Source: a virus
IMG/VR virus record: IMGVR_UViG_3300022690_002678
Length of the DNA: 31,486 nt
Direction: 5' to 3' (one strand)
In this document: piece after piece, positions 846 to 17,453 of the stretch
Numbering within the stretch: position 1 is the stretch's first letter
Layout: every line of letters begins with the position of its first letter
Made by a program: the position numbers and the translations under genes
Notes under the pieces: generated by a model
What the model saw: only the letters and a program-made list of their open reading frames with translations
Database searches by the model: none
Told to the model about the DNA's origin: nothing

Positions 846-1967
846 TTACAGTGGCGTTTCTATTGGATCTGGTTCCCTAACTAGGATGGATATTGTATCT
901 GTACTTGTCACTCCTTTACGATCAGTTACTGCAAGTTGAAACTCTGCATTTCCTGTTTCTTCTGTTGCTGTAAATGTTGCAATAGCATTTTTAGAATTAG
1001 TTAAGGTACCCTCTACTCCTGATAACTGAATCCAAGAATAAGTTATTGTATCGCCATCAGGATCTGAACTTTTAGAACCGTTTAGATTAATTGATTCATT
1101 AACAAATACTTCATCATCTTCACCTGCATCGGCCACTGGTGAATGATTGCTAGAATCGCTTCCAATTACCATATTAATCACAAACATTGTAGTAGTTTTT
1201 GTAATAGTTTGATCAAGATAAGATAAAATCACGTCAACATCATATTCGCCTGGTGGAGAAATATTTGCTGGAAAGTACCATTCTCCATCCCAATGACCAT
1301 TATTTGCAGTAACACCAGATAGAGTTGCAACTGGATTATCATCAAGTGATATCAAAACTTTGACATCTACACCGTCAATTCTTCCATGAAAATCACTAGA
1401 TGATTTTGGATCAGAATTAATATTGCAATCAAATGATTGAATATTTATATCAAAATTTTGCATCCAATATGTTCTAAAGTCGTGCGATGAGGTCATGCAC
1501 AAGTCTGCAACGTATGGTGTTTTCTCTTTGGTTATCTCTGTTTCAATTATTTTTTCTTTGGAAAATGGAATGGCAGATGTTGTTGGAAATTTAATCAGTC
1601 CTTTGTCTGTTGAAAAATATACATTGATCTTATAATTTCCAAGCTCTGCATTCTTGTGACCATAAATTAAAATCCCATCAACTGCACTTGAAATTCTAAA
1701 ATGATTTCCAGTACTTGTAACTCTAATTTCGGGTTCTCTTAGAGGAACCTCATCGCCATAAAATTCCAAAGTTATATCATCTAAATGATTAGTTATCCAA
1801 TCTCGTGCTATTCCTTGTCTTACTGTATCTGCACCAAACTCAATATACACTGAGATTACTGCACTTTCACCTACCAGAGTAACTTCTTGTAGTGTATTGT
1901 TGTTTACTGCATATGCTGGATTTAGCAGCAAAGGAATCAAAAGTAATGAAAACAAAAGTTTCTTCAA
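846..1967 (-). CDS. Secreted/surface protein with C-terminal PKD/REJ-like Ig domain
   Basis: Signal peptide MKKLLFSLLLIPLLLNPAYA; C-terminal PVADAGED...LNGSKSSDPDGDTITYSWIQLSG...FQLAVTD signature; TTG start ~25 nt downstream of a minus-strand TTTTATAAATA (1991-2001). Confidence 0.85.
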   Translation of the reverse strand: MKKLLFSLLLIPLLLNPAYAVNNNTLQEVTLVGESAVISVYIEFGADTVRQGIARDWITNHLDDITLEFYGDEVPLREPEIRVTSTGNHFRISSAVDGILIYGHKNAELGNYKINVYFSTDKGLIKFPTTSAIPFSKEKIIETEITKEKTPYVADLCMTSSHDFRTYWMQNFDINIQSFDCNINSDPKSSSDFHGRIDGVDVKVLISLDDNPVATLSGVTANNGHWDGEWYFPANISPPGEYDVDVILSYLDQTITKTTTMFVINMVIGSDSSNHSPVADAGEDDEVFVNESINLNGSKSSDPDGDTITYSWIQLSGVEGTLTNSKNAIATFTATEETGNAEFQLAVTDRKGVTSTDTISILVREPDPIETPL

Positions 1968-2016
1968 TGAATCTTTTAGGTCTTTGCATGTATTTATAAA
2001 ATTAGTGGAAGAACTC

Positions 2017-2023
2017 TTTATCC
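2017..2023 (+). promoter_or_regulatory. Probable TATA box of the tRNA gene
   Basis: TTTATCC located 25-31 nt upstream of tRNA position 1 (2048). Confidence 0.45.
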
Positions 2024-2047
2024 ATAATTAATACAAAGTAAATTTGT

Positions 2048-2118
2048 GGGCTCGTAGTGAAATGGTATCACATCTCCGTGAAACCGAGAAAGTTCGGGTT
2101 CGATTCCCGACGAGTCCA
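2048..2118 (+). tRNA. tRNA with anticodon GAA (Phe) but alanine acceptor identity (G3:U70, A73); CCA not encoded
   Basis: Acceptor GGGCTCG(2048-54)/CGAGTCC(2111-17); T8 A9; D stem GTGA/TCAC with loop AATGGTA; anticodon arm TCTCC-GTGAAAC-CGAGA (C31.C39 mismatch, GAA at 2080-82); variable AAGT; T arm TCGGG-TTCGATT-CCCGA; A15/U48 Levitt pair; discriminator A2118. Confidence 0.9.
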
Positions 2119-2135
2119 CACTAAATTAATCAATT

Positions 2136-2182
2136 AAAAAAAAGAAAGTTAGTGAAATACTCACCAAATCTCCGTGAAACCT
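2136..2182 (-). ncRNA. Predicted antisense sRNA A, complementary to the anticodon arm and D arm of the adjacent tRNA
   Basis: 2168-2181 is an exact 14-nt copy of tRNA 2072-2085; TAGTGAAAT and TCAC are also shared. Minus-strand TATA TTTAATAA (2212-2205) puts +1 at ~2181; ends in minus-strand TTTCTTTTTTTT (2147-2136). Confidence 0.65.
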
Positions 2183-2467
2183 ATTGTACAATTAGTTAAG
2201 CTGCTTATTAAATGATAACTAAATTACCGAACCTGTCAATCTCAGACGGTTTTTGGCAGTCCACACTTATTTTCAGAAAAATAAAAAAAGAAAGTCAGTG
2301 AAATAGATCACCAAATTCTCCATGATAACTATTGTACAATTAGTTAAGCTCGTTATTAAAGCATTCTGAAAAATATTGCAACTCTGCGCTTTATTTTTCC
2401 ATTAGACTCTACCAAGATAAATGATTTATTCCAATGATATACCATAGTCTATTAAAATTGTACAATT
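2183..2467. promoter_or_regulatory. Three copies of perfect palindrome ATTGTACAAT (putative operator)
   Basis: At 2183-2192, 2331-2340 and 2457-2466 (third extends to AATTGTACAATT); in the first two it lies between the minus-strand TATA box and the predicted +1. Confidence 0.6.
2283..2330 (-). ncRNA. Predicted antisense sRNA B, paralog of A, matching an anticodon arm with GAT (Ile) instead of GAA
   Basis: Same cassette 148 nt downstream (TTATTAAA 2353-60, ATTGTACAAT 2331-40, GTGA..TCAC hairpin, A7GAAAG tract); variable part TCTCC-AT-GAT-AA-C (2317-2329) aligns with tRNA TCTCC-GT-GAA-AC-C. Confidence 0.6.
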
Positions 2468-2489
2468 ACAATAAAGTGATCTAATAAAT

Positions 2490-2578
2490 AAAAAAGAGAT
2501 CTAGTAAAAAGTTACATAACATGCCAGTGAAGTAACGAAAGTGTTTGGTAACAAATGAAGAGCTACTTCACTGACACT
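2490..2578 (-). ncRNA. Predicted hairpin sRNA C with loop antisense to the leader/RBS of the gene at 2695
   Basis: 15-bp stem 2576-2562/2536-2522 whose two mismatches are G:U only on the minus strand; loop segment 2547-2561 matches 2671-2685 at 14/15 (the difference gives G:U); minus TATA TTAAATAA at 2609-2602; T-tracts at 2510-2506 and 2495-2490. Confidence 0.65.
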
Positions 2579-2601
2579 TGTTATGAATTCTAAATAACTT
2601 A

Positions 2602-2649
2602 TTATTTAATCTTTAAGATCAATTTGTGATTCATAGAATCCTTAAATAA
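2602..2649. promoter_or_regulatory. Back-to-back divergent TATA boxes (both TTAAATAA)
   Basis: TTAAATAA on minus at 2609-2602 and on plus at 2642-2649; the latter predicts +1 near 2671-2673. Confidence 0.6.
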
Positions 2650-2694
2650 CATATCTTGAAATTATTTCTCGGTAACAAATGGAGACAAACAAAC

Positions 2695-2961
2695 GTGGTA
2701 GTATTTGCAGCTAACATTACAGAATTTACACTTGCTCTAGTCGCTGATCTTTTAGCAACTGATCGCTGTGTAAAATTTAGCCAGCTAAACAAGCTGAATC
2801 TATCAGACAATACGATCTTGATTAGATTAGCACTAATCAATCTAGTGAGGCATCTGCCAGATAATGACGAGGTTCAAAAATACAAGGCAGCATTGCAACG
2901 TCCCCATGAATTTGATGACTTTTTGAAAGAAGAGTTAGGGGGCATCAACAGTGCAGTCTGA
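2695..2961 (+). CDS. First gene of rightward operon; possible ribbon-helix-helix-like regulator
   Basis: ORF track start (TTG 2656) lies upstream of the predicted +1; in-frame GTG 2695 has GGAG at 2681-84. Beta-strand-like VVFAANI followed by two helices (..NTILIRLALINLVR). Fold call is weak. Confidence 0.6.
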   Translation: MVVFAANITEFTLALVADLLATDRCVKFSQLNKLNLSDNTILIRLALINLVRHLPDNDEVQKYKAALQRPHEFDDFLKEELGGINSAV

Positions 2962-8937: not shown

Positions 8938-9078
8938 ATGAAGGAATCACAACTAAAGGCTCGCGAAACCAGACTCAACAACCATCTACAAAATAATGAA
9001 CTTCTTACCCCCTATGAAAGACAAGCAACCAAAGAAAAATTGGCTACATACATTGACAAAAGGAAAAGAATAGAATGA
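8938..9078 (+). CDS. Small basic protein (MKESQLKARE...)
   Basis: AGGAG RBS; coupled to a 38-aa ORF at 8825-8941 and to the Cdc48-N gene. Confidence 0.6.
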   Translation: MKESQLKARETRLNNHLQNNELLTPYERQATKEKLATYIDKRKRIE

Positions 9079-9608
9079 CTGATTTCATAAAACTCAGATG
9101 CAAGGAATCCTACACCAGAGATGTTGGACGTGGACATCTCAGACTTGATTATTACTCAATGGACAAGCTGAAAATATCTACAGGTGATATTATTGAGATA
9201 GAGGGCAAGAAAAAGTCAGTAGCCAAAGCATTACCATTGTATCCTACTGATGAGGGAAAAGGAATGGCAAGAACTGATGGTATAGTTCGAGAAAATATGG
9301 AATTAGTTGTTGGTGAGGAGATAAAAATTACCAAAGTCAAATCTCATGATGCAATCAAGATAGTTGTCAAATCAGAAAATGTAATTCCTCCAATTGATGA
9401 GCGATACCTTACTGATGCCTTTGAGGGAATGGCAATCTCTATTGATGATTATATCATGGTTACATACTTTGGAGGGCGACTGAAATTCCAAGTGGTTAGT
9501 ACAGTTCCACAAGGTGCAGTAGTAGTTACTCGCTTGACTAATTTTGTTATAGAGGGAAAAAAAGAAGATGATAAAGTCACATGTCCTACTTGTGGGAGTC
9601 TGGTGTGA
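9075..9608 (+). CDS. Stand-alone Cdc48/p97/VAT N-domain (double-psi barrel plus CDC48_2), no AAA module, C-terminal CPTCG
   Basis: ESYTRDVGRG..RLDY.SMD.L..STGDIIEIEG...VAKALPLYP.DEGKG..R.DG...IPPIDERYL.DA...YFGGRL.FQV, as in archaeal Cdc48 N-termini; stop follows immediately. Confidence 0.92.
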   Translation: MTDFIKLRCKESYTRDVGRGHLRLDYYSMDKLKISTGDIIEIEGKKKSVAKALPLYPTDEGKGMARTDGIVRENMELVVGEEIKITKVKSHDAIKIVVKSENVIPPIDERYLTDAFEGMAISIDDYIMVTYFGGRLKFQVVSTVPQGAVVVTRLTNFVIEGKKEDDKVTCPTCGSLV

Positions 9609-15125: not shown

Positions 15126-17453
15126 TTAACTTAGTGTTGTTGACTTCCAACCGTTGTTAGTACATACATACAGATAGTTGTTCGTGTCATCCACTTTCAT
15201 TCTACCAATTTCGTCTATTACATCACAATCTGCTGTTGGCGGCGTGCCTGAACTTGTAGCAAGTTCGATATAACCAGTTACTTCTAATTGTGAGTTTGGA
15301 GTTATAGTTCCAATGCCAACGTTGCCATCAGTGTAATGAATTATTCCATTACCTCCATCCATCCAAAGATTGACAAACAGTGTCTCTCCAAAGTCACCAG
15401 ACAGTACAGGTGATGTAGTAGTAGATGCAGTTGATGTTGTATCAGCTGAGAGTATTTGTGTTGTACCAGTTGGAGTAACAGTAGTAATGCCAACTACTGG
15501 AGGTCCTGCATTATTTGTATTTTTGATAGTTATCATAAATTTGTCAGGTGCAACCCATTCTCCTTCATCTATTTTACCAAGTGGTTCTGAGAATGTAAAC
15601 AAGTCGTTAACATCTTTTTCTGTCAGTTTTCCTGGTCCACTTGGTGTATTTGTGTCTGAATCAAATAATATGACTATAATATCACCAGAAGAATATATAA
15701 CATCCAAGTCATCAGGATCGTCAGCTATTAGTGATGTGATTACTGGTGCTGAAGAGATAAATGATCCAAAGTTACCAGACAGTACTGGTGATGTGGCAGT
15801 AGATGCAGTAGATGTTGTATCAGCTGAGAGTATTTGTGTTGTTGTGCTAGTTGGAGTAACAGTAGTGCCAGTTATAATTGGCGGTGTTGCACCAGTCACA
15901 TCTGTAACTGTAATTACAAATGTATCAGCACTAATCCATTGTCCAGTATATGTGTCTCCAAGTGATTCAGTAAATGTGAACAAGTCATCAACTGCTGTTT
16001 TTGTTTGGAATCCTGTTCCGCCTGGTTCATTGGTATCAGAGTCAAAAGTTATGGTTATAATATCATCAACAGAGTATACCTCATCGAGATCATCAGGATC
16101 GTCAGCTATTAGTGATGTGATTACTGGTACTGGTGAAATAATAGACGTAGCACCTTGCATAGTCACCCATGTGTATGTACTACCATTATAAACACACACA
16201 TACATTTTAGCATTTGAATCATCTACTTTCATACGGCCTATCTCATCTATACTATCACAATCAGTTAATGGTGGTTCACCTGAATTTGTATCAAGTTGAA
16301 TATAACCTGATACTTGTAATGCTGAGATTGGAGAGCTAGTTCCTATTCCTATATTACCTGTAGTATAAGAAAGATCACTTCCTGATTGTGTCCAAAAATT
16401 TGTGTCTACTGTATGAGCTCCTGTAACAAATCCAAATGTTTCAATATCTGTTTGGTCTAGTGTAGTGTCTACTGTATGAGCTCCTGTAACAAATCCAAAT
16501 GTTTCAATATCTGTTTGGTCTAGTGTAGTGTCTACTGTATGAGCTCCTGTAACAAATCCAAATGTTTCAATATCTGTTTGGTCTAACTGAGTATCCATAC
16601 TGGCAGTTGTCTGTGTTGTACCATCAGAGAACTTGAATCCTCCAGATGTGGATTCTATGATTCCATTAACTGAGAGTGATTGATTAGGATTTGTGGTTCC
16701 AATACCGACATTACCACCATCATAGTAAATTACTCCAGCGCCTCCATCAATCCAATAATTTGAAAGTGGTGGTGATGCAGTAACATCATTTACTGTCAAT
16801 GAAAATATTTGCCAAGTATTATCATCTGTCCCATCGGATGCTGTAACATTAAAATTGTATACTCCAGAATCAGAGAATCCAGGATTTGCTGAAAACGTTG
16901 CAGTATCATTACCATTATCAACAAATGATGTAAAGTTTAACAAAGGACTTATTCCAAATGATATCGGATCTGAATCTGCATCAGTTGCACTGATTAATAA
17001 ATCCAACGATGTGTCTTCATCTACTGATTGGTTTGGTATGAAATCAAGTACAGGTGAATTATTAGTAACCTCGGATAAACCATCAAGGAATAGGATATGG
17101 ACTGCGCCTCTGTTAGTACCACCTTCATCATCTTTATTTGCACCAACTACAATGTCATTAATTCCATCATTATCCAAGTCACCAATGTTGCTGACAGATC
17201 TACCAAAGTGATCACCAGTACTTAGTCCTGGTCCATTTGTTGTACTAGAATTAATTTCTACTGTTAATATTACATCACCAGGTGCTGCATGCACTGGAAT
17301 AATTCCTCCAGGAATTAACATCATACTCATAATACTAAACATAAGAAGTGTTTTGAGAATCTTTGTCTTTTTTACGTTATCATTATTCTCGTTATTAATT
17401 AACAATGACAATTTTGAAAATAGCATATATATAAAATGATCAAACGTTATCAA
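15126..17453 (-). CDS. Large secreted adhesin/fibre-like protein: FG-GAP repeat, cadherin/Ig-like domain, three GNVGIGT modules, tandem repeats
   Basis: Signal peptide ending VHA-A (true start probably downstream of 17453); DHFGRSVSNIGDLDNDGINDIVVGA..DD.GG.NRGAV; N.SPVLD.I..Q.VDE...ATDAD.D; GNVGIGT x3; duplicated PVITSLIADDPDDLD domain. Confidence 0.85.
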   Translation of the reverse strand: MITFDHFIYMLFSKLSLLINNENNDNVKKTKILKTLLMFSIMSMMLIPGGIIPVHAAPGDVILTVEINSSTTNGPGLSTGDHFGRSVSNIGDLDNDGINDIVVGANKDDEGGTNRGAVHILFLDGLSEVTNNSPVLDFIPNQSVDEDTSLDLLISATDADSDPISFGISPLLNFTSFVDNGNDTATFSANPGFSDSGVYNFNVTASDGTDDNTWQIFSLTVNDVTASPPLSNYWIDGGAGVIYYDGGNVGIGTTNPNQSLSVNGIIESTSGGFKFSDGTTQTTASMDTQLDQTDIETFGFVTGAHTVDTTLDQTDIETFGFVTGAHTVDTTLDQTDIETFGFVTGAHTVDTNFWTQSGSDLSYTTGNIGIGTSSPISALQVSGYIQLDTNSGEPPLTDCDSIDEIGRMKVDDSNAKMYVCVYNGSTYTWVTMQGATSIISPVPVITSLIADDPDDLDEVYSVDDIITITFDSDTNEPGGTGFQTKTAVDDLFTFTESLGDTYTGQWISADTFVITVTDVTGATPPIITGTTVTPTSTTTQILSADTTSTASTATSPVLSGNFGSFISSAPVITSLIADDPDDLDVIYSSGDIIVILFDSDTNTPSGPGKLTEKDVNDLFTFSEPLGKIDEGEWVAPDKFMITIKNTNNAGPPVVGITTVTPTGTTQILSADTTSTASTTTSPVLSGDFGETLFVNLWMDGGNGIIHYTDGNVGIGTITPNSQLEVTGYIELATSSGTPPTADCDVIDEIGRMKVDDTNNYLYVCTNNGWKSTTLS
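15388..16128. repeat. Intragenic duplication of a ~126-127 aa domain
   Basis: Near-identical blocks at 15709/16090 (offset 381) and 15388/15766 (offset 378). Confidence 0.9.
16402..16585. repeat. 63-bp perfect coding tandem repeat, ~2.9 copies
   Basis: Units start at 16402, 16465 and 16528; encode DTTLDQTDIETFGFVTGAHTV. Confidence 0.95.

Follow-up and report, generated by a model that had tools for sequence, protein, structure and literature searches.

The window, by which is meant the whole stretch of 31,486 nucleotides analysed here (part of a 109,872-nt contig), encodes a tRNA that combines an alanine-type acceptor with a phenylalanine anticodon, and a gene on the opposite strand just downstream is predicted to produce an antisense RNA against the anticodon arm of this tRNA. 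Similar pairs were found from Nitrosopumilaceae, and sequence comparison strongly supports that the tRNA and its cognate antisense RNA constitute a two-gene module with a predicted function. It is likely that the pair is an undescribed all-RNA poison-and-antidote module. That the tRNA is an attenuated, alanine-mistranslating toxin held off by the antisense RNA as its antitoxin is considered moderately probable. The features of the locus and its neighbours are listed below.

846..1967, minus strand: left neighbour in divergent orientation, a PKD/Ig-domain protein (Pfam PF22352, E 7e-17); not part of the module
2017..2047, plus strand: AT-rich stretch upstream of the tRNA that contains TATA-like boxes and has TGT as its last bases, next to G1; predicted promoter, from the sequence
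2048..2118, plus strand: dual-identity tRNA with an alanine acceptor, anticodon GAA at 2080-2082, C31·C39 and G32; predicted toxin
2134..2182, minus strand: predicted antisense RNA 1 (about 45 nt), complementary to the window tRNA; predicted cognate antitoxin
2205..2212, minus strand: TATA-like box of antisense unit 1, located 31 to 24 bases upstream of the start of the antisense; putative function
2233..2254, plus strand: hairpin and T run, the first terminator-like site on this strand downstream of the tRNA (1 found vs 0.1 expected in shuffles, with a bacterial-type scan model)
2282..2330, minus strand: predicted antisense RNA 2, a paralogue of unit 1 that matches a sibling tRNA; predicted orphan antitoxin
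2353..2360, minus strand: TATA-like box of antisense unit 2, from the sequence
2692..2961, plus strand: right neighbour, outside the module; its 88-aa protein has 191 relatives in metagenomes

Identity of the window tRNA

The gene is the sole tRNA called in the window by ARAGORN, as tRNA-Phe(GAA) at 2048-2119, and 2048-2118 matches Rfam RF00005 with 58 bits (gathering threshold 29). An earlier note on this DNA had described a tRNA with an alanine-type acceptor and a GAA anticodon and had expected automated tools to label it tRNA-Phe. Both calls and the position numbering agree with the description, and the label is the one ARAGORN gives. The top of the acceptor consists of G1-C72, G2-C71, G3:U70 (2050/2115), and C4-G69, followed by A73 (2118), and G34A35A36 occupies 2080-2082. 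The core residues listed in the note are all present on the numbering (U8, A14, A15-U48, G18G19 in the D-loop, and UUCGA within the T-loop UUCGAUU), and so is the canonical 7/5 fold by which the gene had been set apart from allo-tRNAs, with a variable loop of 4 nt. The note had overlooked several features of the anatomy: the anticodon stem has only 4 pairs, with a C31·C39 mismatch flagged in the Rfam alignment step; position 32 is G; all four conserved Phe determinants, G34, A35, A36, and A73, are retained; and partial copies of the tRNA lie downstream. CCA is not encoded 3' of A73, and the minimum-energy fold of the lone tRNA strand differs from the cloverleaf in the D and anticodon arms.

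A sequencing or assembly error at GAA, which the note had allowed for, is not borne out by other contigs. A 3,683-nt contig from run X1, which is a possible source run and not independent, shows 0 differences over window positions 1500-2927. A 271-nt contig from run X2, which belongs to another study and has a depth of 2, differs within 2020-2136 only at 2078 and 2091. Since the X1 contig is identical and the X2 contig keeps GAA and U70, an assembly error behind either is unlikely.

G3:U70 is a major and conserved determinant of tRNA-Ala, and the change of C3-G70 to G3:U70 turns a plant tRNA-Phe into a substrate of AlaRS (PMC9976931). Few synthetases ignore the anticodon, and AlaRS is described as one of them (PMC11415595). 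The window acceptor had been called typical of archaeal tRNA-Ala, and in the Nitrosarchaeum MAG G005 (46 Rfam tRNA hits), all three tRNA-Ala indeed share its four top pairs and A73. The tRNA-Phe of G005, unlike the window tRNA, has C2-G71 and C3-G70, while its tRNA-Ile has the same 5' acceptor strand but G3-C70. A genome scan for this acceptor pattern with U11, covering 25 of 64 parts, gave 120 loci; ARAGORN called 106 (101 Ala and 5 other) and left 14 uncalled. The related tRNAs described below keep G3:U70 while their anticodons vary. The NGC anticodon of canonical tRNA-Ala is absent from the window tRNA, which has GAA instead. The sequence gives good support for alanine identity combined with a Phe anticodon, and this part of the proposed Phe-to-Ala mistranslator stands; its reading as a lone gene was incomplete, for the antisense partner had been missed. 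By its acceptor, the tRNA would be charged with alanine and would substitute Ala for Phe.

The conserved Phe determinants are G34, A35, A36, and A73, and G20 is additionally used in an archaeon (PMC9976931). Because the four are kept, PheRS may charge part of the window tRNA, which has U20 where the host-type tRNA-Phe has G20. The 31·39 mismatch may damp its decoding. Overall identity, counted over 71 positions, is 48 and 47 to two tRNA-Val, 46 to two tRNA-Ala, and 36 to the host-type tRNA-Phe; at the level of sequence, these values do not name the parent tRNA.

Predicted antisense partners in the window and in Nitrosopumilaceae

A repeat search revealed a tandem duplication of about 146 nt 3' of the tRNA, with a copy of the anticodon arm at 2165-2181. 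On the minus strand, each repeat contains a TATA-like box, an identical 20-base stretch (2182-2201 = 2330-2349), a part antisense to an anticodon arm, a part antisense to a D arm, and a poly-T run. In unit 1, 14 bases (2168-2181) are perfectly complementary to tRNA positions 25-38, a length reached by 0 of 2000 shuffled flanks (maximum 11). The stretch at about 2150-2164 is complementary to the D arm, and the unit ends in a poly-T run at 2134-2147. The distance from its TATA-like box to the antisense stretch agrees with archaeal spacing. Unit 1 and the window tRNA form 29 predicted pairs, with a duplex energy of -40.8 kcal/mol. The net cofold gain of unit 1 is -16.0 with its own tRNA vs -10.5 with the best of 53 host-type ARAGORN calls, a set that includes spurious long-intron calls; an antisense RNA aimed at the host tRNA-Phe was rejected on this comparison.

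The anti-anticodon part of unit 2 (2317-2329) matches a sibling tRNA with the anticodon GAU and not the window tRNA, with which unit 2 pairs poorly (-7.6). The GAU sibling loop was seen in contig 7 of X1 and contig 11 of X4, with differences phased by contig depth. X4 also has a third relative, on a contig of 3,499 nt and depth 34, which shares the 5' acceptor strand and the D arm, continues into a GUC loop, and apparently has a downstream unit with matching loop letters.

As the first terminator-like site on the plus strand lies only at 2233..2254, the trailer of the pre-tRNA may extend across antisense unit 1. No Rfam match was found in 2119-2660, which covers both antisense units, and no ORF of at least 60 aa lies between 1968 and 2630. 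The units were also considered as C/D box guide RNAs, and this was rejected on the missing C box in both; CUGA is absent from unit 1 and occurs once in unit 2. Farther downstream, the 12-base core that precedes both antisense units recurs a third time (2457-2468), the poly-A flank is copied in part (2490-2509), and the D-arm part of unit 2 has a 16-base inverted copy (2560-2575). These are possibly a decayed third unit or operator sites.

Related tRNAs were collected from 401 Nitrosopumilaceae genomes centred on G005, with a pattern for G3:U70 tRNAs that have A or U at position 35; seven genomes flagged as unpublished were used in denominators only. The strict acceptor pattern matched 1 of the 401 genomes, and a looser one admitted true tRNA-Ala(UGC) by register shift, these loci serving as controls. 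Altogether, 37 family genes with Phe, Leu, Ile, or Asp anticodons were found in 19 genomes. The 36 distinct tRNAs that were scored are these 37 and the window tRNA, less one duplicate and L505, which was dropped by the acceptor-pairing filter and has a 13-base partner. Counts based on ARAGORN lost members and added spurious intron calls, and were replaced by counts based on geometry or coordinates. L211 is probably a mis-registered tRNA-Ala(CGC), and the loops of L521 and L525 are ambiguous (UCU or CUC).

A perfect antisense of at least 10 bases (10-18) to the own anticodon arm was found within 300 nt for 30 of the 36 tRNAs, the window included, versus 1 of 30 host tRNA-Ala(UGC) loci of Nitrosopumilaceae (Fisher p 1e-11), the control flanks being sometimes shorter (302 nt and up vs 600). 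When tRNAs and flanks were swapped, 19 of 1260 pairs reached 10 bases, and the own flank was strictly the best match for 29 of 36. A poly-T run follows 14-27 nt past the antisense in 29 of the 30 partners, and TGT stands directly 5' of G1 in 26 of the 36 members. Both orientations occur, since the layout is divergent in 21 (across about 50 AT-rich bases), tandem downstream in 8, and convergent in 1, the window. RNAduplex energy alone separated the classes poorly. A count with 174 Ala controls left out 20 of 236 tRNAs that had less than 300 nt of free flank, and the matches of 14 and 19 bases among those controls probably stem from adjacent copies of a tRNA.

Because G3:U70 belongs to the family search pattern, only the surveys of G087 and G005 are free of that selection. 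In G087, with 58 Rfam tRNA hits, at least 11 complementary bases were found for only six, which are exactly its six G3:U70 non-Ala tRNAs; the 48 hits without G3:U70 reach at most 10 bases, and the three true tRNA-Ala at most 7. A search without the anticodon filter in ten genomes added six held-out genes, five of them with partners of 13-16 bases. The 29 non-Ala G3:U70 tRNAs of these ten genomes all have Phe, Leu, Ile, or Asp anticodons except for one ambiguous loop, and five of the 29 have C33.

The stems of the family covary (acceptor 5:68, 6:67, 7:66, D, and T), being paired in 32-36 of the 36 members with many pair types, and 15:48 is paired in 34, at a median identity of 64% within the family. 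These patterns indicate that the cloverleaf is under selection. Position 37 is A in 35 of 37 family rows, so that R37 is kept, and 31:39 is unpaired in 25 of 36 family tRNAs vs 0 of 174 Ala tRNAs. The family tRNAs are supernumerary: G005 and G087 retain three Ala tRNAs and a normal tRNA-Phe. Up to six modules are found per genome (G087, G359). Of six 16-20-kb stretches around members, examined through 77 chosen ORFs, five contain transposase, conjugation, or restriction-modification genes, and all five are transposon-type islands; the sixth (L587) contains mostly housekeeping genes. At L536 (about 2340-2690), an insert of about 200 nt whose ends are inverted interrupts the D arm of a family tRNA with the anticodon AAG, and the divergent 16-base antisense copy of this tRNA is intact.

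Six of the 36 members have no 10-base partner within 300 nt. L469, without a partner, is directly behind a transposase gene and is flanked by transposases. The partners of L510 and L519 are imperfect or interrupted. L512, L513, and L514 have no evident antisense unit, and they weigh against a lethal toxin, which should not be tolerated without a partner unless it is silent. Among the distinct G3:U70 non-Ala tRNAs of IMG/VR, 0 of 39 have a 10-base partner within 600 nt, so G3:U70 non-Ala tRNAs exist without antisense control. Exact-pattern scans of IMG/VR for the D arm and the T arm of the window tRNA gave 0 matches. A metagenome scan gave tRNA-Asp(GUC) with G3-C70 at 115 of 120 loci and no family member, and the search of a phage collection gave weak matches, with E about 7 for the 20 listed.

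Predicted mechanism and its rivals

Under the toxin-antitoxin reading, the tRNA and antisense genes would both be transcribed, and the host AlaRS would charge the tRNA through G3:U70, whatever the anticodon. Since AlaRS ignores the anticodon, any loop could be swapped into such a tRNA. Free Ala-tRNA(GAA) would read UUC/UUU and insert Ala where Phe belongs, with the open 31·39 lowering the rate, and replacement of Phe, Leu, Ile, or Asp by Ala would damage many proteins. The antisense RNA would nucleate on the enlarged loop, zip into the D arm, and block decoding or trigger decay. The open 31·39 may have both effects, damping decoding and exposing a larger loop for nucleation. If the element were lost or its transcription stopped, the short antisense RNA would decay first and the stable tRNA would poison translation, the outcome being addiction or abortive defence. 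The second antisense unit would neutralise the sibling tRNA with the GAU anticodon. A toxin with its antitoxin would be the simplest account of a supernumerary, well-folded tRNA of alanine identity, a foreign and varying anticodon, and a dedicated antisense gene that matches it.

In yeast, mistranslation is reported for 52 of 57 engineered tRNA-Ala anticodon variants, and growth is moderately slowed by the one with GAA (10.1101/2022.11.23.517754). Missense allo-tRNAs arrest the growth of E. coli and kill it, and some allo-tRNAs are charged without translating (PMC5389517). In a natural mistranslating tRNA-Ser, G33 damps decoding (PMC11415595). The 31·39 mismatch, G32 in the window tRNA, and C33 in five of 29 relatives could make poor or inactive decoders. 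There is about an even chance that the modules constitute a new all-RNA class of mistranslating-tRNA toxins with anti-anticodon antitoxins, in which the anticodon arm would be the specificity code, modules with different anticodons would coexist and compete, and mobile elements would gather additional antisense genes that give immunity against the tRNAs of rivals.

The main rivals keep the module and change its output. It is unlikely that the tRNA is a non-decoding decoy or inhibitor under antisense control, be it an A-site blocker, a sponge for AlaRS or PheRS, or a bait for an anticodon nuclease. The atypical anticodon arm of most members would suit such a role, and records exist of irregular tRNAs that are charged but do not translate (PMC5389517) and of a phage tRNA that neutralises the PARIS nuclease (PMC11464382). 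A decoy would, however, have no need for an alanine acceptor, that of one of the few anticodon-ignoring synthetases (PMC11415595), on Phe, Leu, Ile, and Asp anticodons; moreover, R37 is kept (A37 in 35 of 37), and the T and acceptor stems covary. Still less likely is a non-lethal switch, in which the antisense RNA would keep Phe-to-Ala substitution at a tuned low level, to the benefit of the element or its host, through stress response or proteome variation, rather than control an addiction or defence toxin. The anatomy would be the same for both, and the features that may damp decoding (an unpaired 31·39 in 25 of 36, C33 in 5 of 29), the coexistence of up to six modules in G087 and G359, and the several members without a partner are consistent with a switch. 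Against it, anticodons and antisense diversify as matched pairs in the swap test, an additional antisense unit, fitting a sibling tRNA, has been kept in the window, and the interrupted tRNA of L536 retains its antisense copy. Matched divergence, orphan antitoxins, and a broken toxin with the antitoxin kept are typical of toxin-antitoxin turnover, and these three observations fit it.

The two readings that dispense with a module are hard to square with the controls. An ordinary virus-borne helper tRNA-Phe, with an incidental G3:U70, is very improbable, although G34, A35, A36, and A73 are present and Phe codons in 10 long ORFs of the window are UUU 163 times vs UUC 36 times: the acceptor is alanine-type in 101 of the 106 called genome loci, identity to the host-type tRNA-Phe is 36 of 71 vs 46 to two Ala and 47-48 to two Val, relatives have Leu, Ile, and Asp anticodons on the same acceptor, and a helper tRNA would not need an antisense partner. 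Least probable of all is a decayed tRNA-Ala or tRNA-Phe whose downstream copies are functionless partial duplications or integration scars. The window copies are direct repeats within the tandem duplication of about 146 nt, and the element carries a transposase, as decay of this kind would suggest. Integration duplicates the 3' half of a tRNA, whereas the partners copy the 5' D arm and the anticodon arm; 8 of 30 partners are in reverse-complement orientation, and partners stand at fixed distances with a TATA-like box and poly-T. The compensatory stem changes across the family and the 48 ordinary tRNAs of G087 without such copies also argue against decay.

Known systems, genomic context, and other loci

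Both parts of the module are predicted RNAs, so that it would be filed as type VIII, with a layout like that of type I. In type I systems, a short antisense RNA with its own promoter and terminator lies beside the toxin in convergent, divergent, or tandem orientation; these systems are found on mobile elements and show cognate specificity among paralogues. Their toxins are small proteins, and the antisense RNA targets the mRNA. At the sequence level, the window antisense gene likewise adjoins and is complementary to the predicted toxin transcript, but its target is a tRNA and not the mRNA of a small protein, as there is no ORF of at least 60 aa in 1968-2630. In the type VIII pair SdsR-RyeA, toxin and antitoxin are both RNA, as predicted for the window genes, but they are mutually cis-encoded sRNAs, while the window antitoxin is predicted to be separately encoded (PMC6610125). 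CreTA, also type VIII, is all-RNA, and CreT acts on translation through a tRNA in archaea; it differs in that its toxin CreT sequesters a host tRNA that is rare and its antitoxin CreA acts as a transcriptional repressor through Cascade (PMC8501985). In the window module, the predicted toxin would itself be a tRNA, and the antitoxin would pair with its anticodon arm. A crRNA-like antitoxin, CRISPR-repeat handles, and cas genes, by which CreTA is recognized, were not seen, with no Rfam match in 2119-2660 and no Cas family among 32 window ORFs.

Allo-tRNAs are natural tRNAs of Ala (G3:U70) or Ser identity with unrelated anticodons, and the window tRNA likewise combines Ala identity with a non-cognate anticodon; some allo-tRNAs mistranslate and kill E. 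coli, and they are located near toxin-antitoxin genes and transposons (PMC5389517, PMC7609411). They are bacterial, with 8/4 or 9/3 folds and a long variable arm, whereas the window tRNA is archaeal, 7/5, and short-armed (PMC5389517, PMC7609411). The tRNA-ProX of Streptomyces resembles the predicted toxin in natural dual identity, a canonical fold, a non-U33 loop, and a toxicity set by the misread codon, but has proline identity and a co-encoded ProRSx, and the account in PMC11415595 describes no antisense partner; for the window tRNA, the host AlaRS would suffice. Canonical archaeal tRNA-Phe has G20 and no G3:U70, unlike the window tRNA with U20 and G3:U70. No mistranslating tRNA paired with an antisense RNA was found in a full-text search that covered few subscription papers, and the word 'antisense' has 0 occurrences in the main text of PMC5389517, PMC11415595, and PMC7609411.

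If the toxin-antitoxin reading is true, natural dual-identity tRNAs near mobile elements, long unexplained, would gain a function and a control mechanism, and deliberate mistranslation would be used as a toxin and switched off by an anticodon-masking RNA. The system would be protein-free and of about 130 nucleotides. Annotation would miss it, since the toxin receives the label tRNA-Phe, -Leu, -Ile, or -Asp and no call is made for the antitoxin. About 5% of the genomes sampled from an archaeal family of central ecological importance contain the module, dozens of naturally matched pairs are at hand for swap tests, and a compact on/off switch for engineered tRNAs is suggested.

The window belongs to a mobile element, likely of ammonia-oxidising archaea. 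One of the 191 relatives of the 88-aa neighbour is named from a Thaumarchaeota MAG, which ties the element to thaumarchaea; a search of viral and genome contigs for this protein confirmed no locus. Genes in the window include those for an IS240-type transposase, a ParB-methyltransferase, an HNH nuclease, and a CDC48 N-domain protein. No virion gene was found among 30 window proteins with PHROGs, and no co-encoded synthetase among the 32 ORFs with Pfam. The CDC48 protein (9075-9608) consists of stand-alone N-terminal domains without the ATPase part and is a possible adaptor or inhibitor of host Cdc48. A 775-aa FG-GAP/Ig-domain protein with three tandem 23-aa repeats (15126-17453) is encoded upstream of the IS240-type transposase, where two gene blocks converge.

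Three loci of Patescibacteria MAGs (L232/L260, L233/L259, and L165/L261) show a looser arrangement, in which G3:U70 tRNAs with UGA or GCG anticodons have an upstream antisense before a hairpin terminator, of 12 and 11 bases in two cases and of 19 bases with two G-U pairs in one. They are a possible bacterial version of the module. A 64.9-kb virus with terminal repeats (G002) has a solitary G3:U70 tRNA with GAA and C37 (L006/L134, 1501-1574), with an 8-base loop complement only, 50 nt upstream; its second tRNA (L136) is long-armed. At four IMG/VR loci (L371, L406, L457, and L592), the G3:U70 tRNA has a stop anticodon, CUA in three and UCA in one; these tRNAs are candidate alanine-inserting nonsense suppressors in phages. 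L001 was rejected as a relative: despite the same anticodon stem, it is an ordinary tRNA-Ala(UGC), in an element without similarity seen to the window. Directly behind this tRNA-Ala(UGC), in a 99.5-kb virus, lies a tRNA-like gene with a 6-nt anticodon loop (1580-1650).

The thaumarchaeal genome G087 contains ten extra tRNAs (L550, L564, L565, L572, L574, L575, L580, L581, L583, and L584) whose body is serine-type, with G73 and a long variable arm, while their anticodons are those of Phe, Leu, Ile, or Arg. For these ten, a separate antisense gene could not be clearly made out. Just past most of them, the opposite strand has a TATA-like stretch from which a cis-antisense transcript could be driven.
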